Notes under the pieces: model-generated
Told to the model about the DNA's origin: nothing
Seen by the model: only the letters and a program-made list of their open reading frames with translations
Databases searched by the model: none
In this document: positions 16,633 through 53,896 of the stretch, in pieces
How positions within the stretch are numbered: the first letter of the stretch is position 1
How the letters are laid out: every line of letters begins with the position of its first letter
Translations under genes and position numbers: made by a program
Assembly (NCBI GenBank): GCA_976551045.1
Contig: CDPCPM010000050.1
Location: forward strand, 15,066,001 to 15,130,000
Source of the DNA: Glaucostegus cemiculus
Taxonomy: Eukaryota
DNA: 64,000 nt
Direction: 5' to 3'

Positions 16633-17254
16633 CTTAATTGGTTGTAATTCAGTGACTTCACTGGGAAATGTGTGTGTGCAGACATTGTGGGAACTGCCAT
16701 GGATAGTTAACACTCAAAGCTCAACAAATAAAAACAGCCTCCCAAGCAAGATGCTAGAAGGTTGCCATTACCCAACAATATACCTCAGCAAAGAGTCAGC
16801 AAAACTGGGCGCAAAATAAACTGCACTGGTCAAAGGGCACATAATAGTAGATATGTAGAGGTGAAAATAATTGGTATCGCATTGTAATAAACCAGTCATA
16901 TTACATCACAGAGGAGGGATTCAGGTACTTGTATTACTTCTGTTTAATATGTAACACATCTTCCCCAGCTCCTCCTAACCAATGACCTATGGAATTACTT
17001 GCACGTCTCTCTGAAATACTATCTGGCCAGAACTTTTCAAGTAAAATGAGGATGTTAAAAAAAATCCTTAAACCTTTCAGCCTGGACACCAATTCGCCCC
17101 AAGTAAAATTCTCAAATGGTTAAGAGAAAAACCCTGGCTTTTGACATCCTCATTTAAAAATAACTTGCCAAGATATCACATGCACTGGGAGTTAATTTTA
17201 CTTCATGGTGGCACTGGATGCTACTTTTACAGGCATGATCTATTGGCTCTATCC

Positions 17255-17830
17255 TTAGACCCGAGTGGAAACCAAAACACGGGCTGGCAGATCCGACAGC
17301 GACTCCTTTAATTGGTCAATTCCGGCCCAGTTAAGCGACACCCGATACCAGCCAGCCAGCCTTCGGGCGGGTAGATTACCACAAGGACGGAAGGCAGATG
17401 CGGCATTTCCAGTCCAACCTTCTGGCTCCCCGCTGACAAATACCTGGCCGTTTTACGGACAGAATCCACTGAGCCCCCACGGCAGCCGCCTGTGTCACCT
17501 TCACCACGATGGATCGATCGTGAGGCTGCCCTGCCGATATCTGCATCCGATAAGCAGCGGTGGCAGAAAGAGGCGTTAACGCCATGTTCGAAGGTGTGCG
17601 GAAATCTGAAATAAACTGATCGCGGTTTCGGGCCACTTCACATGAGACGCGAGTGTCTCCCCCATCAACCCCGCCCCGCAAATCCCAATTCCATTCAACC
17701 TTTTGCAACTGAGCAGTGGATTCTGACAGGAGCCCCCTGCTCTCGCTAGGAGCTCAAGCAATAAATGGTGAACTACTCAAGGCGGATCAATCAGCTGCGG
17801 TGTCGTGAAAGCTGGAGTCCCGGGTTAAAA
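17255..17830. promoter_or_regulatory. CpG-rich block in HIP1R intron 1 (downstream part of the CpG island)
   Basis: Dense CpGs against a CpG-depleted background, 1.2-1.7 kb downstream of exon 1 and separated from it by the minisatellite. Confidence 0.55.
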
Positions 17831-18129
17831 AGCAAGGGCGGTTTCTTATTTATCTGCAAGTTGTTTACCTTTTATTTCTCTCACAGTACCTGCAGCTTAG
17901 ATTATCCCCTTCACTCCCTGAATTTATTCTAGTGACTGGGCACACACAATTGTACCTACTACCTGAGCTCTACCCTACTGTCTGAGCTTTCTCCCTCACT
18001 CCCTGCCGGCATCCTGACGCTGGGTACACTCTGTTTCATACCTACTGCCTCTATTTGCTCTCCCTCCATTCAGCCTGCTTTCCTTAAAGTGCCTTCTGCT
18101 TGAGCTTTCCTTCCCTCCCTCTATCCTAC

Positions 18130-19005
18130 TGCCTGTGCCCTCTTTGTATTGTACCTGCTGCCGTCAGCTCTCTCTCTCTCCCGGTATTATACCTGCTGCC
18201 AGCGTTCTCCTTCTCTTCCTCTCTATTTTACCTGCTGTCTGTGCCCTCTTTGTATTGTACCTGCTGCCAGCTCTCTCTCTCTCTCTGTATTGTACCGGCT
18301 GCCAGCTCTCTCTCTCTCTCTGTATTGTACCTGCTATCAGCTCTCTCTGTATTGTACCTGCTGCCAGCTCTCTCTGTATTGTACCTGCTGCCAGCTCTCC
18401 CTCTCTCTGTATTGTACCTGCTGCCAGCTCTCCCTCTCTCTCTCTGTATTGTACCTGCTGCCAGCTCTCCCTCTCTCTCTCTGTATTGTACCTGCTGCCA
18501 GCTCTCCCTCTCTCTCTCTGTATTGTACCTGCTGCCAGCTCTCCCTCTCTCTCTCTGTATTGTACCTGCTGCCAGCTCTCCCTCTCTCTCTCTGTATTGT
18601 ACCTGCTGCCAGCTCTCCCTCTCTCTCTCTGTATTGTACCTGCTGCCAGCTCTCCCTCTCTCTCTCTGTATTGTACCTGCTGCCAGCTCTCCCTCTCTCT
18701 CTCTCTGTATTGTACCTGCTGCCAGCTCTCCCTCTCTCTCTCTCTGTATTGTACCTGCTGCCAGCTCTCCCTCTCTCTCTCTGTATTGTACCTGCTGCCA
18801 GCTCTCTCTCTCTCTCTGTATTGTACCTGCTGCCAGCTCTCCCTCTCTCTGTATTGTACCTGCTGCCAGCTCTCTCTCTCTCTGTATTGTACCTACTGCC
18901 AGCTCTCTCTCTCTCTCTCTCTCTGTATTGTACCTGCTGCCAGCTCTCTCTCTCTCTGTATTGTACCTGCTGCCAGCTCTCTCTCTCTCTGTATTTTACC
19001 TGCTG
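18130..19005 (-). repeat. Minisatellite, about 24 units of 29-41 bp, consensus (minus) AGCTGGCAGCAG|GTACAATACAG(AG)n
   Basis: Directly visible tandem CTGTATTGTACCTGCTGCCAGCT(CT)n on plus; degenerate copies continue to about 17880. Confidence 0.97.
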
Positions 19006-19092
19006 CCTGTCGAACTGTTCCCGCTCCGCTTCCAGACTGTGCACCGAGCGGCGGTGCAGAACCTTGGCCGGCACTTGTCTGATGGTGTTCAT
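19000..19092 (-). CDS. HIP1R: Huntingtin-interacting protein 1-related, coding exon 1 (rest of the gene lies left of the window)
   Basis: MNTIRQVPAKVLHRRSVHSLEAEREQFDRQQ resembles the human N-terminus MNSIKNVPARVLSRRPGHSLEAEREQFDKTQ; 93 nt, phase-0 donor CAG|GTAAAA; inside a CpG island; syntenic with CCDC62 and DENR. Confidence 0.93.
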
Positions 19093-28866: not shown

Positions 28867-31800
28867 CTGCAAAAATAAAATTGCATAATAAGAATTTAAT
28901 AAGAAAAGATTTAAATGTAGATTTTGCAAAGCTGAAATTTACAAAATGTTGAATGATACAACCAGACATAAATTATAATCAAATTTTAACTGAACATTGC
29001 CATTTTTTTCCATTATAAAATTCAAATGTGATGATTCTGACATCTCACCTGTGTTTTTGTGTCATTAAATGTGAGAAAATAATATTGGGCTTGCTTGTTC
29101 TGGGTCTGGCTCACTGGCTGGGCGCTCCATTCATGGCCTTCATGTGCCAGCACTTACATGGGCCAGATAGAAAGGGTAGAGAGAGCTATCTCCCAAACTC
29201 AAGCTTGTTCCAGCATAACTGGGCTCTGCTGCTGGACTGCATAATGCATCGGAATATGGATCACTCTATCCCCGACTTAAGGCAGGTCCACGCACGTCTG
29301 GGAGTTATTAACCTCGGGGGCGGGGGTGAAAGCTAACAATTCCCTTCACAGCCCCCAGTCTCTACCAGCTCAACTCAGCCCACTACAAGCAGAATATGCA
29401 TCACAAATGGTAGGTGAAAAAAGGACAGATTCCTCAACTGGGCAGGTTAGTATTAGGCTGCAAGTGAGGGGTGAAGGTTTAATTTCACCCCAAGATCTCA
29501 GCTGGGGGAAGATGGCTGAATACAAGATGAAAAAGGATCAGTTGAACAATGTGTAAATCCTGCCGCAATCACAAATTATCAACAGCTGCTGATCTTGCTG
29601 GGGTGGCGATGTTTTCACTCAAGAAAAAAGCTGCTGCAAATAAAATGTTCATACTTTTTGAACAATTCATCTTACAAAAGAAGGATCTGCAGCAAACAAG
29701 TCAAGCTTACTGTGGATTTCTTTGCTTTCCATTTTGGGAAACCTGACACAGAAAGAAGGAAAAGGAATAGAAAGGTGCCTTTAAAATAAGATTAATGCAA
29801 ATATAAACCACGTACAAAAGTAAAATTACTGATTTCAGATACAATTATCTGTACAACTGTTTTAGCAAGATTACAGATCATGCTTTACAATGCAGTTTTA
29901 TCACTCCTACACATCACGATATGGCTGAAACCTTAGAATCATGATTTTGCAAACCACAGAAACCAAAAGCCACTAGTTTTAGACACTGAGAAAAAGAATT
30001 TCCAAAGAAAAATCAGGAGGATTTTTCAAAGAAGTCACACTAAAAGCAGTTTATGAAGATTTGCACAACAAATTTCTTTTACAACAAAAAGAATACTATG
30101 TAAAAAAATAACAAATCTATTTAGAGAAAGAATATTTTTGTGTTTTATTTTCTGCACTTAATCTCCCCACATGATGATAATTCTCTAGTCCTGGATACAT
30201 CCCTTGTAAATTTCCCCATGCCCTTTCTATCACATCTTTCCTGCAATGTGATGATCAAAAATGTACGGAAGGCTCAAACATTTTATAGAGTCCTAATATC
30301 ACCTCCCTACTTTGCCTTTTCCAATAAAGGTAACTATTCCGATGTCTTCCATCCATCCCAATACCTTCAGTGACTAAATGAATACACACTCCAATATCTT
30401 TCTATTCTGCCATACTATTTAGTATTCTACCATATATGATGTACTCTTTTACCCCAAAAGCATTATTTCATACACTTCAGGATTATCAATCAGCCTCAAT
30501 TTATACAGTAAATAACTTCAACACTGAACTGCTTTAGGTTTCTATCCCCAGAGCAGAGGTTTGTTTGGATGGTGAATGGATGGCACTGTGCAATTTTCAG
30601 GAATGAAAAATTGTTAGTGATGATGGGACATGTGCGAGATTCACTAATGGCCTCTAAAGCGTAACAGCAAGTCTTAGATGACAGCAGACGTGGACTTTAA
30701 ATAAGAATTGATAAGGCAGTGACATTTTTAAAGCCAAATCATTTGGACAAGGTTATCTTGAACTCCAATTTCTTGATTTACTGAAAAATAATGAAAAATG
30801 ATCTAATTTTTGACATTTATTTCCCGCTAAGTAACCCCATGTGCAAGTAATTTACATCCTCTTTCATTTCAGGACCTAGTTTCATAAAAAGTTGTTTCCA
30901 TATTGCAGACCACATGAAACCTATGGTTTGAGAAATTTGAGATCAACATGTGTTAGCGTAATAGATGATGGGATAACAAGCTTTCCAAGTAAAGGGACTG
31001 CGGATTAAACAGTTGCCCTGAAATTGTGGCAGTAAATTCAAATGTTCACCAGCAAGCAGCTTTCCTGGTTTGACTTGGGATGGGAAGAAATTACTTGGAA
31101 AATTGAATTTTTTTTTCCTGGAACAAGTTACCAGGGAAATTAAAAGTGGTAATGAGACCTCCACAACCAAATGTAATGCATTTCATTGACAAGCATGCAA
31201 GTGGTGACATATGATCTCTCAATTAAAGAGCAGTAATAATGGCTTCACTGACGTGTGTTCCCAGATCCAAGGAAATGAACACAACACTTTAATTACAAGA
31301 TAGACACAACACAATTAATTTTTCAGCATACATTAGCTTCTATGCTTCAGAAAGACAGAAGAAATTAGACAGTGGGAATTGCGTTAGTTATTCTTGAACT
31401 GATTAAGTACTTGATGGATTTTTCCTCCCCAGGATGTAGTGCAGCTTATACAAGCGAGTCTTCTCTATCTTCACCTCATCCTTTATTCTTCTAAAAACAG
31501 AAATAATTTTGTGAAATTTCACTCACCCTTGCATTGCTGTTGTTGTTGGCACAGGATGACAACCCAAGAGGAAGCTGAGTGCTGCGCTCCAGACTAGCAA
31601 CCATCTGTCGAGATTCAGCGAGCAGTCGTTGCAGTTTAGTAGTTGGTGAACAGTCATCCTGGTAAGCCTTGTTAATAACGATTAACAGAACAAAAATTGG
31701 TAGCTTTTGTTGACAATAGACATCTTAAATAATGAATACAGGTCAATTTGTAGTAAACCATGCTATACATTCTTACAAAAATATGCAAGAGTATATACAT

Positions 31801-34800
31801 CTTACTACCTTTGCAAGTTTCTGAAATTCAAAGACATCAAAACAAAAAGTGATTTTTGCGAAGATGAATGGAAGTACTCAAAAATGCTGAACATTTGCCC
31901 CTCCCTTCCTATTTTACATGCAGTGAAAGTTTTGATATCTTTCTTTGGTCACTGGGTTAACATGAAGATGGTGTTTATGCAGGTTAGATCTCCATATGGT
32001 ACAAAGTCTTTTCAAACATATTGTCATACAGTAAAAATGAATTATATATATTCTGGCCATTAGTTTACACATAAAGCGTTACCTCACCTCTTTACTACAA
32101 AATGGAGTCAGACCTGATTTGCCAAACATTTCAGATTTGTAACAAATGAATTTTTATTTTTATTAATTTATCTTTGTTTTATTTCAAAATATACTGCTTT
32201 TCAAACATTCTTCACACTGTCTTTTAAGACTGCCATTGTGCACTGTACTTGAAAATTCCCTCTTGGTTGATCTTTTTAAATATGGATATCGGAGTCAGCA
32301 AAAGTTCCTATTGACCATAATGGTTTCCTTCTCTAGTTATAAATCTTCAATAGACTTTAACAACTTACATTATTAGAAGATGCCATTGCATTGTCCTCAG
32401 TGCAGCTCAGTCTTGCTGGCGAAACAGAGTCATTCCCACAAAGTTCACCATGGAGGTTGCTCTTTCCCCTGGGCCTTTCTCTAACTGGTGAGGAATTCAT
32501 GGAACATTCTGGTGACTCCAAACCATATGCATTCAGTTCCAACCGTTCATCACTGCTATTGGTATAGGAAGAATAAAATGAAAAGAGAAAAACTATAGTA
32601 GTTTTGAAACACAGATTTAACAAAGTTCTATCTTTTGCAGAGTGAAGTCAAGCCCATTAACAGCCAGAACAAAAACAGAAAGTGCTGGAAATATTCAACA
32701 GGTCTTGCAACACTCATGGGGAGAGAAAGAGTCACCATTTCATATTGATGACTTGTCATTGATTCTCTGCAGAGCTGCTGCCTGACCGGCTTTGTATTTC
32801 CAACTTTTTCTGTTTTAACTTTAGATTTCCAAAATTAGCAGGTTTTTTCCAGTCAGGTCTCCCCATATATTTATATATATTTTTTAAAGCTTTCTTTTCT
32901 CTCCAATGTTCTCTTGTTGATTGTTAATAGTGACAAATCATAGAACAGAATTTCAGATTCCAGGCAGTATAGGAATACCCAAGTTTTCTCTCCAAATATG
33001 CAAGTCAACATTCAAAGTATAGTAAATTACATATATTCAAAGTATGGTAAATTACTCACAAACATAGTTCTTCTCACCCAAAACTTCCCAAATACAGAGG
33101 TAGCAAAAGCCTCGAGTATAACTAGCCAGCCAAATCAGGGACCCATGACAGCAGTCAGTCAAAACAATTCAAAAATTCCTTTCTTAATTAATGTTGAGAG
33201 AATTAAAGAGAGTATCGCACCTTGTTTTTTCCACAGCAGTAGGACTATCTAACCCATGCAAGGATCCTGAACCATCGTTTAGGTACAGCCACCACAAATC
33301 TTTTACATCAACTGCTGGCTGATAAAGCTTCATCCAATCTTGTTCCAACATTGAAGCCTCCTGGTCAGTTTCATTCCTTGCAAGCGACTGAGACATTTCT
33401 TCACTCATTCCGCATTCACTCAGATCATTATTGTATTTGTCTTCCAGGTTATGATTCTCAACAGTCTTTGCTACTTCTTTTGTTGATATAATAGAGGTTG
33501 TACTTGGCTTTGAACAAAGGGGGTGATGGTTGTCTGTTGGTGTGCTGACTATGCTACCTTTGCAATGAGAAGAAGTGTTGCAGCTAGGACTATGGTGATC
33601 AGTATTTATATATGCTACGTTCTCATGTTCCATGATGCCAGCATCAGCAGATCCTTCAAATCTCCATTTTTGCTTCCTTGACACTTGCCGCACATTGTTT
33701 TCTCTTCCCTGAGGTGAGCCACAATCATTTGCACTTGTATAGCTGCAGTTTTGCTTTGGTGCAACATATTTTGTAGGCTTCTTATTAGAATCATTAGTGT
33801 TACAGTGAAGATTGTGGGTCTTGAATGTCACATTTCCATTAGTACTCTGATCAAATTCAAGAGGAAAGACAACTTGAGCGTTTGCAAAATCTGACGAGCT
33901 ATAATTTCTACAGTTGACAGTATTGCGTCCTTCTGTGACTAATAAGTGGCCCTGTTCTTTGGTACTAATTGGAATTAATTCAGCATCAAGATTCTGGGTT
34001 GACTTGGCTGCTTCTTCTATATGTCTATTGGTCATGGATTCTTTTTTATGACCTTTGGTTGGCTCCTTTTTCCATTTTTTTAAGACCATGTCATTTTCAC
34101 ATTCTTGCCCCTCTATCTTATTCTGTCCATTGTTGTTCTGTGCAATATATTTGGAATCTGAGAAAAGTCTACCAGAACTAAAAGAAAAGAAGTACAACAG
34201 GAACAATAGTGAGGTTAACTTCTGATAGTCCCTTCATTTTTTTTTCAAATGTTGATACTACTGAAATCTTAAAATATGACACATGAAAATGTCACTTCAA
34301 ATTAGAAAATCCTTATTGCAATACTATCAATTCAATGGAAGTTTCCACCTTTACATGCTTAATGGAATCTACAGGAAAAATGGAATAGACAAATCCAAAT
34401 TTATCAAAGTAGATTTCTTAACGTTATGTTTTCAATATTCAGTTCCTATTTTCTGTGGTGCTAACTGTCAGTGTGAATCATTTTAATATAAGTCCTGAAG
34501 AATTTTGTGCCCTTTTGGTGAAGCCTATTTGGCTCTGGTCATGGACAAGCATGATCTTGTCCTCTCTTTGATCTACGCATGCAGTTCCTTGCAGAGTTCA
34601 CTCAATTGGGAATTCAAACCCTTATATGATATTTTTCTTTTTGGGTCATGAGACTCTGAAGTCAATTGTCCATTAGATCATTTTAATAATTAACAGTTAT
34701 GGTTAAGACATAACATAATTAACATGTGAAATTATGATGTTAATAAAACAATGAAACAGAATTTTGGTAGCAGTGTACAATGCATAGCTGTAATGATACT

Positions 34801-37800
34801 GCATATTTACTGCTGGTGACCAATGAACAGGACATCTATGAATACTTTTTTAATGCAAATTTTATGTCAATGAATACTTCTTTAATGTGTATTTTATGTT
34901 AGTAACTTTTTCTTAAAATGGAGAGTTAGTTTAAAGTTAATACATAGGTTTTCAATATTCAGTATCCACTAACATTAAGGATTTCTACTGACAATATTTG
35001 GATTTGTCTATTCCATTTTTCCTGTAGATTCCATTAAGTCCCATGCCAACTCCATTCACTCACCTTGTCTCCAAAGTCTTTCTGTACCTTTGGTGATTGG
35101 AGTCTTGGAAATTTCAATTCACTCAGTATCAACTACAGCCTTTAGAGGAGTCTTCCTGATCTCCACTGTCCTTATGTGAAAATTGCATCCTCATTTACTC
35201 TTAATTGAGCTAGCTTTCTTTAAGATTACATCCCCTATTCTAAACTTCACATTACATGACACAGCCTGTCTGTAATTCCCCAGCCTGTATCTTTTTAAAC
35301 AACCTAGCTGGATCACAAACTATGTAAAGATGGAAGGATTCAGAAAGGCACATAAGAAGCCACCTAACTTTCCTTAGTGCCCGGTCCACTGCTGGTCATT
35401 TAATCCAGCAGGTCAATCATTGGCTAAGCTCAGATGTAAAGACTACTTCAAAGAAATACTTTACATTTTTTTTGTCCTCTAACATATGAATATGGTCAAA
35501 ATCAAACACTCCCCCGCTGCCGTGAAATGAACGAAATAGTACTTCTATTCTAATGTGGCTTGAGAAACCATTCATCATCATGACATGAAAAATTGTTACA
35601 AGAATGGACATAGCAATGCCACTTCTCAGTTGAGTTACTAAGTACCTAACTAAAGCCAACCACATGAGAACACCAATGAGGTAGATAAAGAATACTGCAT
35701 GAAATATTACCAAAGATTCAATATTATGAGTTTTCAACCTTGGAGAGACTGGAAGCTACATGCTTGCCCCAAAAGTCAAAGGAAATATTACAGTCACGTT
35801 AGATCTGTCATACAAATCTCTAAGCAGGGTACCATAAAACAGTTTCAAAAACTTAATACCACATTTCCTGAAACTTTCTTCATCTAAGATGTGAATCTTA
35901 ATGAGAGTCATTATTTAATTATCCTCTAATAAATATGGTCTTTGTAAACACATCCACTTACACTTCATAAAATTATATTTATATGTGGCACACAACTGTG
36001 TATACAGTAGCTTGTGCCAGTTTCAATCAAGACATTGTTATGATGGGTCCTTTCAATGCATTAAGCAAAAAGATATTGAGCTGATGAGGACAGTATGGGA
36101 TGATATTGAAAGTGATATTTAAAATGACAAAATCAAATTTTTCTGCCCACCTAATTTCAAGAATTTTCTCTTCCTGCTTTTTGATCAATTCCTGAGAACT
36201 TTCAAGATTCAAATGAAGAAGCTGCAAGTCATGTTGTTGCTTTTCATTTACCTGATCATAAGATACAGAATTGCTATATATCAAATCATAGTTAAGATTA
36301 GATACAAGTACATAACTTTTTCTACAAACCTCTGGCAAGGGAAAGGTAAGGAAGGGAACATATGTGTATGCTAGAATGAACTAAGAAAATAGCCTATATT
36401 AATTTCAACATAATTTTGGTTCATGAACACAGAATCAGTTTCTGTACACTGTCAATGATATATGCACACTTCAATGCATTGTAACAAAGATCAACTGTAA
36501 TATTTTATTTTAACAGTTCAGTTAAGTAACTGAGAAATTATTAACTACTGAATTTTATGTACTCAACACAGGGTGGATATTCTGAATGCTCAAAAGATAA
36601 TCTGTAGTGCAAAGGGAATGTTAGATAAAGGTAGGAAAAGACCAAATGTAGCAAGACATTAAATTGCTGAAACTGCACAATAAAGATTCGACAGATATCG
36701 ACTTCTCAGAATACAACTATAAAGCATGCAATTGAAATATCACCATCCACCTGGTACAAAAGGAGCCACTGATTTGAGTAACGATTTGATATGCTACCAT
36801 AACAAGTCTTAGTACCCTTACTTAAAAATAAATAAATCTTTCAGTATAATAAAAGACTGAGACAGTGATCCAAGTTTGGTGCTGGATAACACAAATCCAG
36901 CCCCTGTATTGGTTTCCCCCTTCTCAGAATTCAGTTTCAGTTCAAGGACTGTAACCGGACAGCACAGCAGTAGACATCATTGATGAGCCTAAGGAACCCT
37001 TCCATCATGTACTTGGACACATCTCATGGGCCACAAGCTTAATCCACTATAAGTTTAGTGCTTACTAACCAAAACACAATCCCATTGTTCAAAGCAAAGC
37101 GCATAATAACTTAGCATCGTTCTTTCTAGAATTGCTACATTGGAATGTTTGGTTTAAATATCAATTGGGCTTTTATGCTATAATTGGGTTTTTATGTTAT
37201 ATTCGTACCATAAATTGATAAAACAACCTACAGCCAATGACTTACCTCCCTAAGCAATGAAAGAAAAAAGAAAGAAAATGAAACATTTAGGAAATAAGGC
37301 ATAAGGACCAAAGGATAATAAGAAAGTGCATCAACAAAAAAGTGACAGAATTGAAAAGAACATTAGTAAGAATGAGTTAGAGGAAAGGTAGTTGTAATCA
37401 AGCCATTATTCAACCTTGAGAAGTTAGTTTGATAGGTAGATGCGTGAAATGCATAAACATTTCTGATCTGTAGAACCAGTAGCCCCATCATGATCAGAAA
37501 CAATGGAGCATCCAGTGAAAATGCCAATGCACTCACCTCAAATCCTTTCCACCATCTCCAATACAAAATGACACAGAATTTAAGATTGAAGGAGTTATTG
37601 GGAAACTAGAAAACTGTCAGTTTAGCAAGTCAGAATTATACCAGGGATTAAGGAGTTAAATTATGGCATACTGCACAAACTTGGCTAGTATTCAAAGAAG
37701 CCTGCTCATCACTACCTTCCTTCAGACAGTAGGCATGGGCAATAAAATCTCCTTTCCATAAATGGTCAGAAGAAAAATTAGTTTCATAGCAATTGCAAGA

Positions 37801-40800
37801 AACAAGTCAAAAGTCCATCCAGACGCAAAAGACTGCAGATGCTGGAATCTGGAGCAACAACCCGTCTGCTGGAGGAACTCAATGGGTTGAGCAGCCTGTC
37901 CATTTTCTACCAATTAAGTATTGATCTGATAACTAATCGACCTCTATCTCGATCATATCTATCTTTATGATATGATATCTCTATCATATAACACAATAAC
38001 TCTGATGGGAAACTGTTTGAAAGAATCAGTCACCTTTCACGGTGTTTACCACTTAGTAGATGGGCTAAGCTTACTACGTGTCATTAAAAGCATTGCTTTA
38101 CAGCCTGTAACTTATTACCTTCTCACATTAACAGCATTGTAGGTGACAAGACTGACACAAGGACATGTGTAAAAATTAAATAAAACACAACCCATATAAG
38201 TACATTTCTCTAGCTCTTAAAGAGTGATACTCTATAGCCTCCAAGGTCTATTATGGTCCTCCAATGGTGTGTACCAACTGATAACCTGCACATTGCAATT
38301 CATGGAGACTTTGTTCATGTTAATTATCTGCCCCAACAGCCATGAAGGAAAATAGTTTGATAATGATAAGCTTTAGAGAATCTCATTGGCATTGGCGAGG
38401 GCAAAAACACAGTGATGCAAATCACCCAAGTTTCTTGAGAGGAGGACATGCAATTTTCCCCAGTTCAATTTCTAGCTCTAAAATTATATATTTTACTATT
38501 GTGGTACTGTTTATACATTGTGCTTCAAGTCCTCTGTTCAAATTGCTCTTAAATTGGCTGGAATAAATGGCACAAAGGATCTGGCCTGAAAGAGTGATTT
38601 TCTCCATCTAATTTGGGTCTCTCCACTACCTACCTAATAACATAATTATGATCAGGAACTTGATGTGCAACAATTCTATGGAATAAGACTTAGTCTATAG
38701 CAAAGCCTGTGACACAGAAGCATGACAAATATTATTGTGCTCAGTTAGAAAGTCAGAAATATAATGTTTGGGATCAACCAAGATGTTTCAATTGCAATGG
38801 CACTCTACTTATCAGAAATGAAAAAAGGAAATCAGGAACCCGTCAGTTTAACATCAGTCAGAATGATGCAAGGGACTAGCAATTTAAATTATGTCAGGTT
38901 GCACTGTGTGTTTTTAGAATTTAAAAGGGTAACAGAATGGTCAATTTAAAATAACCAAGAGCTTTGGCAGAACCAGGCTATTTAAGAAATCAAGAGAAAC
39001 TTCGACACTAATGGAAATCCAGAAAATTATTGTTAGGTCCATCAAGAAATATGGACTTAAAGTGGGTCAATGGATTTAAGTTGGAGTGGCTCAAGAACCT
39101 AAATAATCCAAAGTTTTCACGTACCAATGAAACCCAGGCTTGGTAACTGACCTTGCTGAGGATTTATTATCTATCTGTGTGTTTTACATGATCAATCAAA
39201 TTAATGAATATTCCAGTGAATTTGGAAATCAATTACACTTATACAATGGTTGAGTACAGCCTTCTTTTTGTGTTCACCTGGCTACTTCATAGTAAATTTG
39301 TTATATAAAATTGAATTACTGATGTAATTAACAGATTTCAGATGACCTTACCTGCCGAAGACCATGCAGTTCAGTGTCAGCTCGCTCCTGTTTAGATTTT
39401 GCCAGTTCCAGAATCTGATCTTTTCTCTTCTCCCGCTCAACTAAAATAGAATTGCAAAACCAGGTACTTTTTTTTCTTTAATATAAATTTGGCATGCAAA
39501 AATCACTAAAAATATTGGAACATGAAATGCAAATATAGCGAAACATTATTTTTGCATTCTGCATAGACAAACTATTTCAGTAGTTTCAGTTTTCACATTA
39601 ATATTGTTATTTTTTTATTTGGGCAGATGAAAATCAAGTAAAAAAATTTCATATAGCACATATTTGAATACAGGAATTAGGAGCAGGAGTTAGCCACTAG
39701 GCCCCCTCTCTGAACTTACTCGGAAGAGCTCTGCACCTTCTTACTTATCAAGAATCTACCCACTTTTACCTCAGAAATATTCAAAGACACTGCTTCCACC
39801 ACCCCTTGAGGAAGTTTCAAAAACTCATGACCCCCAAAGAAAATATTTCACCTCATCACTGTTTTAAATGGACACTTACTTTGTTTAAATGGACACTTAC
39901 TTAGTTCTAACTCCAGCCTTAAGAGTAAGCTCTCCATATTCACCCTACCTCAGAATCTCATCATATGCATTCAAGTTCCTTCTCCAAAACTCCAGCAAAC
40001 AAAAGCCTAATCTGTCTAACCTTTCCTCACAAGAATATCTACCCATTCAAGGTATTTGTCTAGTAAACTTTCTCTGAACTACTTCCAATGCATTAACAAT
40101 ACTTTTTAAAAATAAGACCAGTACTGTACATAGTGGTCCAGATGTGGTCTCACTAATCCCCTACATAACTGAAGAATAACCTCCTGACTTTTGTATTTAG
40201 TTCCCCTAGCAACAAACAGTAACATTCTATTAGCTTTCCTAATTACCTGCCATTACTGTACACTCGCCTTTTGAAAATCATGCTCTAGGACACCCAGATC
40301 CTTCTATATCTCAGAGCTCTGCAGTTTCTCACTATTTGGATTAAATGCTCCTGTTTTATTTTTCCTGTCAAAATGGACAATCATACATTTTCCCACATTC
40401 AGATTCTCCATTTGCCTGATCTTCACCCACTCACTTAACCCATCTACATATTTCCTTGGCCTTACGTCCTCTTCACAACTTACCTTCCTACCAACTTTCT
40501 GCTGAGAGGACTTGACATTAAGCTGATTTAGAAAAACAACTCAATTTATTTTTGAAGCAGTCAGATTCAAAATAATTACTCAAGAATTTTGGAGGGTATT
40601 GTTTCCACCTTAACCTTTGACCCTGAAACCAAAGGCACACAGTGGAGCACAGTTCCATTGGAAAATAAGCCCTTTGATTAAGCTCGTCCTTCATTTGTGC
40701 TAATGTGAACATTAATAATAGAACAATACAGCACAGGAACAGGCCCTTCGTCCCATGATGTATGCACTGAACATGATGTGGAATTAAACTAAATCTCTCC

Positions 40801-43800
40801 TGCCTGCACATGATCCATATCCCTCCAATTCCCTGCATATTCATGTGTCTAACAGCCTCTTAAAAGCCACCACTGTATCTGCTTTCACCACTACCCCTAG
40901 CAGCCCGTTCCAGCACCTAACACTCTCTGTGTAAAAAAAAATTGCCCCACAGATCTCCTTTAAACTTTTCCCCCCTCTCACCTTAAATGCAGGTCCTCTA
41001 GTATTTGACAGTTCCACTCTGGGAAAAAGACACTGACTGTTGACCCTGTCTTTCTCTCTCATAATTTTATAAACTTCTATCAAGGAATTATGGAAAGGAA
41101 AGAGAAGCATCACACCTTGGCCTTTTGGTCACTAAATAAGAAATCAGGTGCAGGAGCACTGCATTCTTCTGTCCCCAAATACTAGAATACAGGGCTATTC
41201 GGACTGATTTGCTGCTGTCGTTGGTAGAATCAGCAACAATACAGACAAATGACCAACCTGGAATCCATGATGGGTCACAGAATACCCTGTGGCAACTACG
41301 ACAGATGGAAGCACCCTTATTATTTCTTTAAGATTATTTACTTACCAGCTAATGTAAGCTCATTTCCCAGATATTGTCTTTCTTGTTTAAGGCGAATTAT
41401 TTCTTCCCTTTGCTCATTATTTTCCACTGTTTTTTCATCCAACTCATCTAAATAAAAAAAGGATAAAAAGTGTGAGTGGAGTGGTGAAGATACTGCAAAA
41501 AGGACAGAAAATGTTATGTTCAAAGTGGTGAGGAGTTCTACAGTTTGATGTTTATAAAGAGGCTCTATCTTTAAAACATTAGCTTTCTCAATCCCAGGCA
41601 AGTACTGACATAAACATATTTACAGTTTCAATTTGCTTTTGAGAGAGATTAGCAGTTAGGGTCAAATTCTGGAATTTAGTTACTTTACAATTCGTATCCT
41701 TGTCTTAATTTTTTTCCACTATCACCAATCCCTCTCATTTAGTTCCATCTTTCCTGATATTAGTGCATCTTGATACTGTAATCCCATGAGTCCAGAAGCT
41801 ATCCTGACAGTAATCTCCTTTGAGTGAATGCAGAGAATGACAAATGCAAATCATGCTATTGGACTTCATAGATAAGCTGAAATCAAGTAACATACATGGC
41901 ATTTGTATTTAGTAAAGCTCCAATAATGCACTATCAAACGACTCGGAAATGCCAGTGGTTCAGCACTGGCTCACCAAGTGATGTTTGCCATGCTCCCTTT
42001 CCATTCACTGGGCCCCCTGTTCCCCTGCCCTTTCAACTTGCCAGGGTCCAGGTTCCCACACTCCTGTTCAACTTGCCACTCCCCTGCTTCCCATTCAACT
42101 CGTGGGGCCATGGTTCCTGCGCTCCATTCCCACTCACCTGGAACCAGATTTCCATGCTCCCTTCCCACTCACTGCAGCACCTGTTCCTGTGTTCCCTTTC
42201 AACTCACTTGGGCTCCAGTTGCTACATTCCATTTCCACTCACCACAGTCCATTCCTGTACTCAATTTAAACTCACCATGGCCCTCATTCCCATGCTCCAC
42301 TTAAACTTTAACTGGTTCACTGAAAAATTTATTATAATACATGTATAAAAAGTTATTTGAGGTATTAACATCCAACAGTCTGAAGTATCTGTTTGTCCAA
42401 CACCATCAAAATCCCAAGCAATTTTACTCTATTTGACCAAATACTGTGAGAATACTGGGAGATGCTAATCTTGTCTGATCCTTAACAGTATTCTTCCCCC
42501 ACAAATAGCCCAGTCAATAACAGTAATTCTACCCAGATAAATTTATCTTGCTGTATTCTCACAAATAAACAAGCCACTTGTTTGTGTAAATAAACCAAGA
42601 AAGCCCAGAAACGCCTCTACTTCCTGCGGAGATTGAGGAAAGAGAACTCCCATCCTTCTATTATGAAAACTTTTTATAGAGGGACCATTGAGAGTATCCT
42701 GACACACTGCATCACCATCTGGTATGGGAGCTGCCCAGCTGCTGGATGGAAGTCCCTTCAGAGAATAGTGAGAGCAGCAGAGAAGATCATAGGTGTCTCT
42801 CTACCCTCTCTATATAAGGACCTATGTGTCAGAAAGGTCACAAACATAATGTCAGACCCTTCTCACCCCTCCTACCACCTCTTTACACTCGTTATCTGGA
42901 AGAAGGCTGCAGTGCATCCGGGCAAGGACTACCAGACTATGCAATAGCTTCTTCCCACAAGCTATCAGAACCATGAGCTCCCTCATCCCTCCATCCCTCC
43001 CGCCAACGCCAAAGGATGCTAGGCGTACAGAAATGCACCAGCACTTTAAATGTTCGTTGTTTACTGCCTCAGTACACTCACTTTAAGATTGTTTATTCGA
43101 GTCGCTATTTAATTTTGTGGTTCCAATGTTTTTAATGTCTTTCTGTCTTTGTGTCTCTCATTGTTTTGTTTTAATGTGACGAGCACCTTGATCTGTGGAG
43201 TACAGTATTTCACTCCTATGCATTCTGAATGTGTATATAGTAGTGACAATAAAACTGATTCTGATTCACTTTGACAAGCATTTTGAAGTTTAAAGAGTGC
43301 AATACATAGCAACATTACACATCTATGTATTTATTTATTTTTGTATGTACTACTAAATATAAAACAGAAATGCTTCCATAAGCTACACCCAATTAAACAG
43401 TTGACAGAAAGAGAATGAATGATATTTATAAATAAGAATAACAAAAGCAAATTTAAATCAAACAGAATCTAGTTTGATAACAGCAGCTTTGCCTGTGTAC
43501 TTTATAATATCAAATGCTCCTTTTAGAATGCAGTCATTAGGAATCCGTGTAGCTATATCAACCACTCATTACCATATATAAATAAAAACTGTTCCATTTT
43601 GACATTTTACCAAAATGCTTTTAATTTATCACTTTAATTTTGCTAAGTACTGATTTGCCAACACAATCTTAATGGATCTCCTCTATATTCCATTAAACCC
43701 AGAGATTAAGCTTTTCCAGAAATACAAACCCCAACAAAAACAAATCACTAATTTCAACCACAGCTCTTTCACATCCAAGTCGAAAGGTGATGGGTTTCTG

Positions 43801-46800
43801 TCTCTCCCCAAATATCTGATCCAAAAATCTAGGCTGAAAATATAGTGTAGAGATAAACCTAACACCTCATCTGCACTCTGACTTTGATGTAAAAGCTTCC
43901 ATGAAAAAATCAAGTGCAGAACACCACACTTAGGCAATATTTATCCCTAAACCAATATCATTAACTTAAAACAAAACATTTCCTTGTGAGCCATCTTCTA
44001 CATTAGAACAGTGGTGACACCTCAAAAGCACTTTGCTATAAAACTGCTTTGGAATATCCTGAGGTAATGAAAGACATGATAAATCTAAATTCTTTATTTC
44101 TAACTATTCCAGCAGGAGATAGTTTAATCTTTACATTCTCCTCTCCAAATCCTTTCCCAAAATAGATTTTCTCAGTCTATATGCATCTCTCCTTTCCATT
44201 TTATGCCTCCCATTCAACATAGCCATTCTTCCCCTTTTCCCCAATAGGTCTTCTCTTTCTTTCTCCTGATCCTCTACCAATTTTGGGTAGGTTTTCAAAG
44301 GAAATTGTGCCACCATAGCCTAATTCACTTTCTGGAGTTAGAACCAGAGGGGAAAAAGGAAGAGAAAACAAAATAAAATCTAATAAGTTTAGCACATATC
44401 TCTATAACATAACAACAAAAAACACACCAGTTAATAAATAATCACTTGTTACTGCAGTGTGAATTGGTTGTCATATAAATACTTAAATTTTGCGCTCTTA
44501 TTCTCCATAATACATTTATTAACATCAATTCCTAAACAATAGTAATTTACAACCTACCCTTAAGCTTGCAGATTTCATGTCGTAGTTTCTTTGAATGCTG
44601 TTTGCAATCATGAACCTCTTTCCTTGAATTTGTCTCATTTAGCCTGGCTTCTCGTAGTGCACCCTCCAAGGTTTTAAACCTAGCTGTAAGGTCCATGATG
44701 TGATTGGTAGCTTCAACCATATCTTTGTCCTAGACAAAATGCATCAGCATCATGGTTATTGCAGCATTATGCAAGAAAACATATGGAACAATTTCAAGAT
44801 AGTTTACAGTTTTTTAAAATTCCTTATATTTGCATTTATTCAAGTGATTTGTATTGATTGCCTCAGAGAAGACAAGGAATGTAGCCTGTGGAAGAGGGCT
44901 AACTCCCTGACAGCATTTTCAGAATTTCTATGTTCAACTGTACATCATGAAAATCCTGAAGGTAATGTCACTTTCAGACTTTAATTATGGCAAATAATGT
45001 TGTCATTGTTACTGCTCCCAAATCTAGACCTCGATGTCAAACAAAGGAAATTTTAAAACTTCATGAGATAAGACCAGAAAATGCCAGAAACACTCAGAAG
45101 GTCAGGCAGCATCTGTGGAGAAAGGAAGTTAATGCTTCTGGCTAAAGGTCCTTTGTCAGAAATGGGAGACAAAGAGCAAGAGGACATTAGAGAAACAGAG
45201 CACAAAATTTTAATAACCTCTTTTCAAAAGCTTGTAAGTCAATAATATTTGGCTTTACGATAACACGTCATTCATTCCATTGACTCCTGATATTTTATGG
45301 AAACATTTTCTAGATTCTAAAATGGAAGCTTCTAGATTTTCCTATAGTGGAGAACATGGGAGGTTTATTATACATCCCACTGATCACTTATAGTACCTTT
45401 AATTCTAGCATTGTAGCGAGCTCCTGTTCACGTGCCTGTAACTGTCCCACCTGGGCAGACAGCTCCATCACAGAGGAATTCAGACTTTTGTTCCTGTCCT
45501 GGTTGAGGCAAGCAGAATCCATCAATTGATTTTAAATATACATTTATGGGACAAAAATGTTAATGATTTGTGGTTTTTTTCCTGCTGGCAGTCTTACCTC
45601 TAGCTCTTCACAGTTGCTAGCACACTCTGCTGCTTTTTCAGACATTTCCTTCAGCCTTTGCTGGGTGCAGTTGAGTGTTTTTAGACAATCAGCTTGTTGA
45701 GATTCCAAAATCTTTTGTTGTGTACTTAAAGTTCTGATGATCTCGTTCCTGTTTCGCAGTTCATCTATTAAACACAATATTATTAACTGTTTGTATACTA
45801 ATTTATAAAAAGCGCCAATGCATTTTCCCTTTGCACATTACTGATCTGTGAAGAATGCTTTTCTCCTAAGTCTATAAGCATGTTTTTTTCTGGGGAGTAT
45901 TTTACAAAGAATAAGTTATACTCGGTACCCCATGGATCAACCCCTTGTGCTGAGACCACGTCCCGTGGTTCTAGACTCTCAAGCTCAGCAGGATTAATAG
46001 ATAATTAAGAGGGGTTTGGGAGTAATGAACAGAATATAATAAAGTTTTATTAAAGTTAAATAAAGCTAACTACAAAAGTGCAAGGCCTGAGTTGGTTATG
46101 GTAGAAAGTCCACTAAAATGTATGACAGTAAACAACCAATGGCTAAAGAGGTAGTACACAGATTCCAAGTACATTTTAAGGCAAAACAACTCCAACAGGA
46201 TAAATGGCTAGCCATGCCTATCAAGTGAAGTTGATACTTCTACAGATATGTCAAAAGGAAAAGATTTGCTAAAGTTACAAAAGGCACAGAAAATCTCCCA
46301 GAAATAGAGGAAAACTACAAGTTTAGTATGAATAAGAGCAAAGAAATCAGCATTAATAAAGAAACTAGTATTGGCAAAATTAATGGACTAAAAGGCAATG
46401 AGGTTTTGAAAGAGGTGGCTATGGAAGTTGTGGAAGCATTAGTCCATGTGTCTTCCTAACTGTTTGCTCTATCTGTATGTTAGTTTTGTGATTCATGAAC
46501 AGCATAGTCTTATCAAGTTAAAAATCCAGTTCTGCTTTTCCCAACATAAATTATCTCATAAATTCTCTACATCAAAGTATTATTGGGTGTTTCAAGGCAA
46601 TAGCAGATCTCAGAACTGAGATACTTTTGCGGATAAGACACTGAGATACAGTCTAAACTGTAAAAAAAAACAGTACTAACGCTCCACTTTGGCACATCGC
46701 TCTTCTAGGCTGAGTATACGCAGGCGATCCTCCTCCCACGCCAGGAGCTGCTTCTGATGCGCAGCCACCATTTCATTTAACTCTTTATCCCGATCTTTTA

Positions 46801-49800
46801 GTTCTGCTACAAGCAGCTGTAATTCATTGCGTTGTTTCTGAATGGTAGTATTCTCCAGATCCACATTTGTATTCTGGGAGTATAAAGGAAATGTCATAAG
46901 AAAGATTGGGATAGTATATTTTCAAGTATTTGAAAAAGCATTGTTAGACTTTCTTTAGAGAAAACAGAATATCACCGATTACAATCCTAGCCGAGTTATT
47001 AATGGCAACAATACATTAATCCATAATCCTACTGAAAAGCAGGGCAACTCTATTCATTATTCTCTAAAGTATATACACCACAAAATGAGAATCATTTACT
47101 TTACCTGTACATTCTGTAAATCAAAGTTCACAAAGTTTTTGATTATTCTGGTGAATATAAAATATTGTATGTGGTTCTAATCCTAAACCAACAACTTAAT
47201 TTGCAAAATCATTCATCACAATCATCCATGTAGATTTTAGGCAGCTTCGTGTGACTTTCAGATAGAAATTTAATTTGCATCTAAATTTCCTGTTTAGTTT
47301 TTATTCTGGATTAACATTTTAGTGAATTGGGCAGAAGAGAGAAGAAAAATAATTCAGAAGTCGCAGGATACGTTTTTCAAATTATTTCAACAATCAACCT
47401 GACCATTCAGGTTTTCACCCTAACTGAAGCACAGTGAACTGTTCCCCAAATGGACATCCTCCCAACTTCATTTCTGTTATAGAGCCAGCTGTTCAGCCCA
47501 TTGACGCTATTCTACTATTCATTTACATTTTGGCTGTTATGTACTTCATTTTCATTTCCCTGCATAAGAATAAGAATGGAATTATTGCATAGAGCACTCT
47601 GAACCTGCTGCACCATTCAATCTTAGCTTCATCTCCACTTTCAACACCATTTCCCATATCCTGAAACTTTCCTAATGCAATGAAACACTAATAATCTGCT
47701 ATACGACTATACAGAAATCCAGATGGTTCAATACCTGGTTCACAGATGACGTTTTTCATGTTCCCCTGAAACTCACCGGCGCTCCTGGTTCCCACAACTT
47801 CCCTAAAAATCAAAAGGGTTCCCATTCCCATGCTCCCCTGAACCTCACTGGGATTCCCAGTTCCCACATTGCCCTGAAACTCACTGGGGCTCCCATTCCC
47901 ATACTCCCTTCAAATTTACTGGGTTCACTGGAAAATTTATTACAATATTACACAACATCTAAAAAGACGGAATTTAAAGTAAAAGTATTGGAGTAAAAGT
48001 CACTGACAAGGCCAGCACTTACAGCCTATCCCTCATTTCCCTCGAGACTCTAGTGATGAGCTCTCAAGCCAAGATATTTCCACAATGCTGTTGGATCAAG
48101 CGTTCCAGGATTCAGAACCAATGAAGATGTCTCTAACCTAATTTCAGCAGCACGTAGCACCTTAGCATACTACTTAATTTAAAATTTAACTTCTTGTAAT
48201 TCTTTGCCCAATCTGTAACTTTTCTAATCAATTGATTCCCACACAAACCAGTTTCTGGCCACTCACCCTCCTATTCCAGATCCTTTTACATTTTCTCAAT
48301 CATATCTCACACTCTAGCACCTGGAAAGTAAAACACTCTACAAATCAAGTATACCTTACCAATCACCCCCAGACTCACAGAATCTCTCACAATCAGCATT
48401 GATCTGTTTTTGGCATCTGTTCTGCTTCTGCTGTGGTAATCTCTCTCGCTCAATCATTAACCATGCTGAACTGCATCACTGATACATAAATGGCTAATAG
48501 ACAAATCAAGATCCCCCAAGATCCACTTTCTGCATTCACCTGCCACTTCCTGCCCCATGAACAAGATCTCTTAATTGCCAACTTCTTTAATCCTGTGGGG
48601 TCACCAGCTTCTACACTGTCTACTCTGGAAAACTTTCATCCTACCTCAGAATTTTTAATTTGTTTTCTTTCCCATCTCATTTCACTTGCCCTTTCCTCAG
48701 CCACTGTACCTGCCTAATAGCAGTTTCCTATCTAAATTCTTCCGGCTTTGATAAAATGACATTTAGTGAAAATTGAACTGTACCCCTGCCTACCCAGTGG
48801 TGCCTTACCTGGATATTTACAGCAATTTCTACTCTTTTCTTCAAAATTCACATTTCAATTTTGTTTTCACATAACTATTTAACCTATATTTTAAAATTTT
48901 GTTTATTGAGTTATTTTCTTCTTGCTCCAAGTTGTTGTACTTATTTAGTAGGTGGAAAGTTACAGGGGTACAGTATATATGGGATCTTGGCAATTGATTG
49001 GTAGAAATATGGAATACTTTCAACAAAGGGACTTAATGGCTGACAAATAAACAGAGATCAGTGAATTAGAATGGGAAAATGAGGCAGCCCATGCCTATGT
49101 GCAGTAAAACCTAGACAGCGTTCAAGCAAGGGCTGAAAGGTGGAAAGTAACATTCACACAACATAGGTGCCAAGCAATGACCATCTCCAACCAGTGAGAA
49201 ACTAACCAGCCACCTTTGACATTCAATATTACCAACACTGGGTCCCCCATCATAATTATTCTGACTATAAGCTCAGTTAGACCAGCTGTGGCTACAAGGG
49301 TAAGTCAGAGGCTGGGTATCCTATGGAAAATGACTTCCTTCTTGACACCTCAAGGCCTTTCTATTATCTAGAAGGCACAAATTGGGACTGTAATGGAATA
49401 CTGCATTCCCAACAACCCTGATGAACCTCAATACCATCCATGACAAAGCAGCCCCCCCCGACCCATCAACCTTCTGAAAAGATTCATGCAGCATCTTCTA
49501 CAAAATGCATTGCATTTACTCACCCAGACTACCCCAAAAGCATCTCCCAAACCTGCAACCTCTACATCAAAAAGCACCAGTGTAGCAGGTGCAAGGGATC
49601 AGCAACGCCTACAGGATTGCCTCTAAGCCATGCACTAACTTAACATGGAAATTTAATCACTGGATCCAAATACTGGAACTCCCTGCCCAACAGCACTGTG
49701 AGAACACCTTCACCAGAAACACTGCAAAAGTTCAAGGAGGTCACAAGCTGCCCAAATTTGACATGCTAATGCATGTTCTGTTGGGTTAAATGTAATCAGG

Positions 49801-51184: not shown

Positions 51185-53029
51185 TTCAACACCTGGTGCC
51201 TAACATACAGAATCACAAGATCATACACCGCAGAATATTCAAGGAGGCAAAAGACATCTTAAGTCAAATGAATGTGTTATAAAAAATATCTGACTGCCAA
51301 GCATCATCTTTCCTTATACAATTTAATTTCTAAAAGGAAGTAATTCAAAATGCACATCTAAACTGCCTTACGACCTCAATTCGCATTTATGTACCCTTTC
51401 CGTGCCCAATTTTCCAGCCTAATAGCAGGAAAGTGTGTTTTTCTTTAAATGACCTTAATAATCCTTACCAAATTCATAGGAAAAACTAACAAGCCAGAAG
51501 GGGGAAAACAGGCAAACTTTAAAAAATATTATTTATTTAAAAGTGTGTGGACAACACTAAAAATCTGGCATAGTAAAATATGCTTACTGAGCTTTGCTTT
51601 TGAAATCCACTTCACTTAAGTGTTTCTCAGGCATTAATGTTTCATGTGAAGGGTGACCAACAGGTTAACAACGAGAGCAAAGATGGGAAAAAACAGTGGG
51701 ATCATTTTAGCAATGAACTAGGAAGGATTAATAAAGAGCATTCTCGTGGAAGTTCTAGGAGCAAGATGGAACAAAAGAAAAAAATTGATACTAAAATGTC
51801 ATAGGGAACAGTAGCCTGAATGGAAAGACTATCTTACATTAAACATATAAAATTATGCAGGACATTTCATTTGCTTGTCCAAGATCAATTTAAAACTCAA
51901 TCATATGGTGTATAACTTTAAACTTGCCTGATCTCTTTCCTTCTGATTACATGGTTTCAATCATAAAAAAATGTAACCTGTTCACATCTAACCCTTGCTA
52001 TTAATAAACTGTTAAGGGCAATCATGCACCGTCGGTCCTAGTAATCAAACACATTCATTGCCATGTTGACTTATTACTATCGTAATCAGAAAAGATAATA
52101 CATTATACATACTCACCATTCAGCCAAAAATGAAGGCTGTGTAATTTAAAAAATTCCCAAAGATGAAAAAAATGGGTAAAGGTTAACCTATAAATATACC
52201 TGTATGCATGCAAAATAGTTTGTACTGTAGCAACGTGAGTTTATTTGACTGAATGATATGACATTTTACAAATAATCATAACATGATGTGTTATCACTTC
52301 AGTTATGATGCCACAGTGGTACTGGCCAGCCAATCAGCTCACAGCTAGCCTGAGTTCACGTTTACATTGGTCAGCCCCTTTCTGGCTAGCAATATCCTGC
52401 TATCGATTTTTTGAATTATCAACACCACCAGCTCAACAAAATAAATAAACCATGCTCAGGTAAATTTGACTCACTACTAGACTGTGTGTAAGCTGTACAA
52501 ACATGTTCTCATACTGAAACATTTAACTGAAGGATTACTTCAAACAGATTGTCAAAGTCTTAAATTAGCTTCCACCCCACCTGAACCCTGGTCCCCATAA
52601 ACACCAAATTACATCATCACCAGTGTCATAAACAATTTACTAAAAGTGGGGCTTTAGTCCAACTCTTGCCTATTTCTACCAAAGTTTAATTAAACTGGGA
52701 CAGTTCATCTGAATACACAGAACCAAGAGAATAATCTTTATTGTAAACATTATAAGCAGTGTATTAGGTAAACTTTCTGTTAGACCAGAACTATTGTTTA
52801 AACAAAAACACAAAAAAAATCACCAAGAACTTTTTTTAGAAAGCTGATAAAAGAAAACATTAGTTAGAACCTAAAATGATTATTATTTATGATTATTAAT
52901 CATAGCCAATATCTTTAGTATTATTGTTAATAATAATTTCTGATGCCATGACTCAAAAAATCAAATTTTCACCCCAAGGCAGAGGAATCTGCCAGGTAGA
53001 CTGAGGAAATACATAGAAATTGGTATGGG

Positions 53030-53690: not shown

Positions 53691-53896
53691 GCGGCCCAGA
53701 AGGCGCCCCCCTACCCTGTATCCCGGCGGCGGCGGCCCAGAAGGCGCCCCCCTACCCTGTATCCCGGCGGCGGCGGCCCAGAAGGCGCCCCCCTACCCTG
53801 TATCCCAGCGGCGGCCCAGAAGGCGCCCCCCTACCCTGTATCCCAGCGGCGGCGGCCCAGAAGGCGCCCCCCTACCCTGTATCCCAGCGGCGGCCC
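53691..53896 (+). repeat. GC-rich minisatellite, 5 units of 38-41 bp
   Basis: GCGGCCCAGAAGGCGCCCCCCTACCCTGTATCCC(A/G)GCG(GCG) starting at 53691, 53732, 53773, 53811 and 53852. Confidence 0.97.

Follow-up and report, generated by a model that had tools for sequence, protein, structure and literature searches.

A minisatellite of splice donor copies at the HIP1R exon 1/intron 1 junction of a ray-like fish

In the window (the whole 64,000-nt stretch of DNA analyzed here), the first coding exon of HIP1R is followed directly by a minisatellite of 25 units of 27–41 nt (18127..19007, minus strand; 77% purine and almost CpG-free). The first unit holds the native 5' splice site and the others repeat it. 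The array probably originated when the exon 1/intron 1 junction was copied in tandem. It is probably a tolerated passenger that leaves the transcript together with intron 1, the native donor being dominant. The array is a boundary-spanning donor minisatellite, a kind already known from F7, 6-16, CBS, LMNB2, PDGF, ABCA7 and the mirages of lancelets. It stands out by its position after a first exon, its weakening at +4 and its spacing, which is driven by (AG)n tracts.

HIP1R exon 1 and the structure of the array

The coding part of exon 1 (19000..19092, minus strand) comprises 31 codons, starts with the ATG at 19092 and ends in FDRQQ at phase 0. It is 100% identical to residues 1–31 of the ray HIP1R P0146. 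Exon 3 matched HIP1R of sharks, rays and chimaera at 96–100%, and when the whole gene was compared with 21 proteins, the batoids were closest (Pristis 87.8%, Narcine 86.4%, Mobula 85.0%; sharks 80–83%). These matches identify the gene as the HIP1R of a ray-like fish; HIP1R is also the gene named in the initial annotation. Exon 2 lies outside the window and was located in the genome with Pfam ANTH (G000:C50:15055586-15055523); intron 1 is thus 29,413 nt long. The junction from 19000 to exon 2, assigned by homology and not by RNA, is the same as in 21 of 21 chondrichthyan proteins having this exon end (34 examined), which is FDRQQ in 20 and FDRHQ in one. Exons 2 and 3 were also compared with three raw RNA runs (organism B; 18–24% of each run covered) and one contig set. 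The mean depth was 0–2, no exon 2 joint or loose end was present among the placements listed, and the output came mostly from a dispersed repeat at L012:7400-7510. The 15 sequencing runs listed as sharing words with this DNA did so to a small extent (0.05–0.11 of the words), with no RNA run among them, and were not taken as evidence.

Two observations concern the neighborhood of this junction. Exons of CCDC62 lie upstream of HIP1R (31500-51200, minus strand), and the one ending at 31527 has a phase-0 donor. RefSeq models of Mobula and Hemitrygon (P0023, P0138, P0140, P0142, P0144) splice this exon onto HIP1R exon 2; such read-through would leave out HIP1R exon 1 and the array. Close to the likely CCDC62 start region lies a GC-rich 41-nt minisatellite of five copies (53691-53896). 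The second observation concerns HIP1R intron 2 (1,619 nt, G000:C50:15053904-15055522, L012:7904-9522, minus strand), whose 5' end is of the U12 type (GTATCCTTT), which contains a branch-like TTCTTGAC and for which homology requires a 3' end of AT. This intron could have the rare GT-AT ends, a base error being the alternative. Mouse Hip1r is reported to contain a minor intron (PMC8848931), and GT-AT U12 introns are given as 7 of 66 non-canonical cases (PMC1557818).

The native 5' splice site (CAG/GTAAAATA, the slash marking the exon end; 18992..19002, minus strand) matches exon 2 in phase and is itself the first array unit. Intron 1 begins with GTAAAATACAG(AG)7 directly after 19000. When the array was decoded by hand and cut at each GT, it resolved into 25 units from 18999 to 18127 (873 nt), that is, the native donor and 24 GT copies with donors spanning 18967 to 18155, which bears out the earlier count of about 24 spare sites. 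Each unit consists of GTA(C/A)AATAC, an (AG)n tract of 8–22 nt, CT and a copy of the exon end, GGCAGCAG, which corresponds to the final 8 bases of exon 1. TRF reported the array at 18140-18990, with a period of 37, 24.1 copies and a score of 1057, far beyond chance as a repeat. There are 14 distinct sequences among the 25 units. The initial annotation described the copies as differing from the native donor only at +4; across -8..+10 this holds for 19 of the 24, the exceptions being 18893, 18331, 18296, 18232 and 18193.

The units are not equally alike along the array. A homogeneous, young core (18418..18860, minus strand) contains 12 units with a common A>G change in the AG tract, including 8 identical 37-mers. 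The last four units are diverged (18127..18261, minus strand): unit 23 carries the native A at +4, and units 22 and 25 carry ACAG upstream of the copied end, which by its sequence appears to be a longer piece of the HIP1R exon end. A homogeneous core with diverged edges is what an array typically shows when it turns over and its edges are old. In the 2.85-Gb genome, a 23-nt array core had 17 exact matches, every one of them inside the array, and the reversed control had 0. With its core at this one locus, the array is not a dispersed satellite or a transposon-derived repeat. The head-to-tail units, the authentic junction in the first unit and the repeated donor place it among the boundary-spanning donor minisatellites.

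Since the exon end is conserved across chondrichthyans and the core is young, we infer that the array grew out of the HIP1R junction and not the junction out of the array, the direction that the initial annotation had also proposed. The copied piece comprises the donor and the last 8–11 exon bases, and slippage or unequal exchange, aided by the (AG)n tract, may have multiplied a variant with A>C at +4.

Beyond the array, a purine-rich tail with decayed donor-like words at 18042, 17956 and 17890 (17880..18126, minus strand) is single copy in the genome and possibly represents older array remnants. The first two AATAAA hexamers of intron 1 lie at 17928 and 17876 (17871..17928, minus strand). Just past the nearly CpG-free array, a single-copy CpG-rich block (17251-17750) has a GC content of 0.55–0.58 and a CpG o/e of 0.8–0.95; the array may have split an older CpG island around exon 1. 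On the plus strand of the array (18127-19007), every unit resembles an acceptor, with CAG placed after a pyrimidine tract. On the gene strand, intron gain or recursive splicing via the CAG/GT units was rejected, as this strand is purine-rich and has no pyrimidine tract.

Donor strength, reading frame and the choice among sites

Donor strength was expressed as the ViennaRNA energy, a crude measure, of the duplex with the 5' end of U1 as encoded in this genome. The native donor was predicted to pair at -8.3 kcal/mol and the common copy at -7.1 kcal/mol, and within 900 nt of the start of intron 1 no site was predicted to be stronger than the native one. For comparison, 26 donors of HIP1R and CCDC62 (placed by script from homology, so that some may be misplaced) had a median of -7.4, and 10 of them were as weak as the array copies or weaker. 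G+5 is present in 24 of these 26 donors and missing from both the native exon 1 donor and the copies. One real HIP1R donor carries the same CAG/GTACA core as the array copies. The copies are therefore predicted to be workable donors, weaker than the native one, and the earlier description of them as plausible donors is sustained by these energies. The nearest two copies had predicted unpaired probabilities of 0.68–0.78, compared with 0.77 for the native donor; masking of the copies by RNA structure was accordingly rejected as a cause of first-site use, the copies not being hidden by the predicted structure.

Related arrays indicate which site would be chosen. In the F7 report, only the first intact site is used and five downstream identical sites are silent; between 1 and 12 repeats left splice choice unchanged, and stronger copies competed only once perfect (PMC1557585). 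The same source lists LMNB2 and PDGF as using the first donor only, and 6-16 and CBS as using two copies as well (PMC1557585). The cap-binding complex is described as aiding U1 loading on the first donor (PMC7462061). For duplicated donors that are both well bound, use of the downstream one is reported to rise beyond ~30 nt and to approach 100% from 45 nt, with the upstream donor active where the downstream one is weak (PMC3413131). For weaker copies at 33 nt, the F7 and cap observations and the duplicate-donor observations would both favor the native site, which comes first, lies closest to the cap and has the better predicted U1 pairing. By analogy with 6-16, CBS and ABCA7, leak to the nearest copies is possible and would be limited to the first one or two of them. 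Several points count against the preferred reading of a dominant native donor and a passenger array. This dominance is something that we infer, the copies are within the working range of donors (10 of 26 as weak or weaker), the duplicate-donor rule favors a downstream site from ~30–45 nt (PMC3413131), and both nearest copies happen to be in frame.

The HIP1R frame remains open into the array up to a TGA in a mutated unit (18337..18339, minus strand), the first in-frame stop, exactly where the initial annotation had placed it. The length of the (AG)n tract sets the phase of each donor, as had been proposed. Of the 18 copies ahead of the TGA, the seven reported earlier are indeed in phase 0 (18967, 18934, 18640, 18529, 18418, 18385 and 18358; p=0.62 against one third), and with three further ones behind it the whole array has 10 of 24 (p=0.39 against one third). 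The commonest 37-nt unit is stop-free in all six frames, and 13% of full shuffles, or 24% of those in which the AG tract was kept, were also stop-free on the gene strand. The frame is open through the array because the unit has no stop. Neither the open frame nor the number of in-frame donors exceeds chance. The array does not behave as a coding tandem repeat either, since only 11 of the 25 unit lengths are multiples of 3 and the insert is absent from the 73 annotated homologues with this junction.

What a copy would do to the product depends on its position. The two nearest copy donors, with last exonic bases at 18967 and 18934 (18926..18969, minus strand), are in frame and predicted to add 11 or 22 residues, so that the 11-residue modules of the initial annotation apply to these two; the other five in-frame copies before the TGA would instead add 120–214 residues of mixed-frame repeat. 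For the 11 out-of-frame copies before the TGA, read-through terminates in exon 3. Message decay is expected for transcripts with such an early stop, and use of these farther copies would thus likely end in decay. The probability that both nearest copies are in frame by chance is between 0.11 (uniform phases) and 0.19 (given that 11 of the 25 units have a length divisible by 3), and this is the sole faint hint of filtering.

The strongest competitor of the passenger reading is that splicing draws steadily, at >10%, on the nearest one or two copies, giving HIP1R with 11 or 22 additional charged residues at the ANTH front edge, each purine-rich spacer enhancing the copy behind it. Both copies are in frame, predicted to be accessible and of workable strength, and the insert would fall at residue 31/32, where Pfam ANTH (31-296) begins, within the construct of PDB 7OST. 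Precedents are the two used copies in 6-16 and CBS (PMC1557585) and the used second unit of ABCA7 (PMC5954066). Against it, the copies lack both the +4 pair and the G+5 found in most of the inferred donors, and F7 is reported to use its first site exclusively (PMC1557585). None of the 73 annotated HIP1R-type proteins having this junction carries an insert there (154 proteins stored), a weak result because these are automatic models from other species. Overall, steady use of the nearest copies is unlikely.

Less probable still is that the dose or isoform of HIP1R is tuned through the length of the array and its (AG)n phase, or that the array loads U1 against premature polyadenylation in the 29-kb intron, as the initial annotation suggested. 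The density of U1-like sites (-7.0 or better) is indeed high, at 25.6 per kb in the first 900 nt of intron 1 compared with 0.7–3.6 per kb in the rest, and the length of the ABCA7 VNTR is reported to alter splicing and disease risk, but via skipping of the next exon (PMC5954066). Counting against tuning are the random phase mix, the open frame as a by-product, the lack of effect of F7 copy number (PMC1557585) and the constant use of the ABCA7 copy donor across VNTR sizes in the source describing it (PMC5954066). As for U1 loading, the first AATAAA lies 1,072 nt from the native donor and 199 nt from the array end. This distance is 1,072 nt because the array intervenes and would be ~200 nt without it. 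The array thus spans a distance of its own making, and no benefit is needed to explain it. An extended form is just as improbable: live copies would supply charged 11-residue inserts at the lipid-binding domain, far copies would lead to decay, and (AG)n slippage would reset the phases between alleles, making a heritable dial, and the HIP1R exon end would be one of dozens giving rise to such donor arrays in cartilaginous-fish genomes. A neutral array, which the initial annotation had named as its own alternative, is the better reading than a tuned device.

That the array is false, an assembly error, is the least credible alternative: it has seven adjacent identical 37-mers and dinucleotide tracts, spots where consensus calling slips, but also 14 unit sequences among 25, a variant common to 12 units and a diverged far end, in a window without N, with a single-copy flank, on a contig of 22 Mb. 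Small length errors are quite possible, and a slip of 2 nt would shift the phase of all later copies; array length, copy number and phases were taken from one assembled haplotype.

Related arrays in other genes and elsewhere in this genome

Among the known systems, the 37-bp VNTR in intron 7 of human F7 resembles the HIP1R array in having the boundary in the first unit, a unit of ~37 nt and a donor repeated into the intron (PMC1557585). It differs in that 5–9 identical units follow an internal exon in F7 (PMC1557585), whereas in HIP1R 24 copies weakened at +4 follow a first exon and a variable (AG)n tract makes spacing and phase vary. The arrays of 6-16 (25 pseudo-sites), CBS intron 13, LMNB2 and PDGF intron 4 are likewise described as boundary-spanning donor arrays of 10–25 units, the copy number of 6-16 being about equal to that of HIP1R (PMC1557585). 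Splicing and polymorphism were measured for F7, and the use of 0–2 copies is documented for the other four (PMC1557585), whereas the HIP1R array is known here from its sequence. The 25-bp VNTR in intron 18 of human ABCA7 also begins at the donor and has 23.7 reference units, each with a donor GT, of which the second is a cryptic donor in use. Unlike HIP1R, it has a C-rich unit starting at the GT, 12–427 copies and measured skipping of the next exon (PMC5954066). The mirages of amphioxus (Adh3 and the globins BflGb6 and BflGb9) share tandem boundary copies, a homogenized middle and a diverged edge, and are reported to leave normal splicing undisturbed; they differ in belonging to an invertebrate chordate, in comprising acceptor as well as donor types and in their demonstrated length instability (PMC3087553). 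Among the papers listed in a literature search whose coverage excluded most subscription journals, none dealt with HIP1R and a minisatellite together and none with such arrays in cartilaginous fish.

The genome was scanned for other donor-derived arrays, as the initial annotation had proposed. Three CAGGTRAG words at 18–40 nt spacing gave 1,990 matches genome-wide, compared with 258 for CATGGRAG (same composition, no donor) and 511 for the reversed word. Because matches cluster, loci were counted instead, on contigs C1-C31 and among the matches listed. The donor word occurred at 15 loci against 3 for CATGGRAG (p=0.008), a comparison that is thin with one clean control word and in which at least three donor-word arrays adjoin dispersed repeats. 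Against the reversed word, the count was 15 to 8 (p=0.21), a control that is not clean because several of its arrays hold the donor word on the other strand.

The first 100 matches listed represented 16 loci: two arrays start exactly at a coding exon end, three possibly follow an exon, one sits in a LINE fragment and ten are without an evident exon. The first exon-end case is a plexin exon (L039, G000:C12:25363000-25368500, minus strand; Pfam E=9e-21) with 9.7 copies of a 45-nt unit that contains a strong donor and the exon's last ~36 bases; a TGA follows within 1 codon of read-through. The second is an AFAP1L1 exon (L037, G000:C10:3486000-3492500, minus strand) with 13.8 copies of a 41-nt unit that holds a strong donor and a weaker one; here the stop comes within 14 codons of read-through. 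The copy donors of both equal their real donor in predicted strength (-11), and strong-donor arrays with such early stops would have to be tolerated here. The three possible cases are L043, after a CpG-island promoter, L047, after a possible microexon, and L048, after a possible short exon; the array in the LINE fragment is L042. Scaled to ~300 loci, 2 of 16 (95% interval 2–38%) would, as a rough extrapolation, correspond to some 5–120 exon-derived arrays for CAGGTRAG.

With a first exon followed by 24 slightly weaker copies at 27–41 nt spacing, the HIP1R array is a natural test of 5' splice-site choice, for which the F7 rule that the first site wins and the model-substrate rule that the downstream duplicate wins make opposite predictions. 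Perhaps the weightier result is that donor-word arrays are several times commoner than matched-control arrays in this genome, and the ray lineage may offer dozens of loci at which 5' splice-site choice could be tested.
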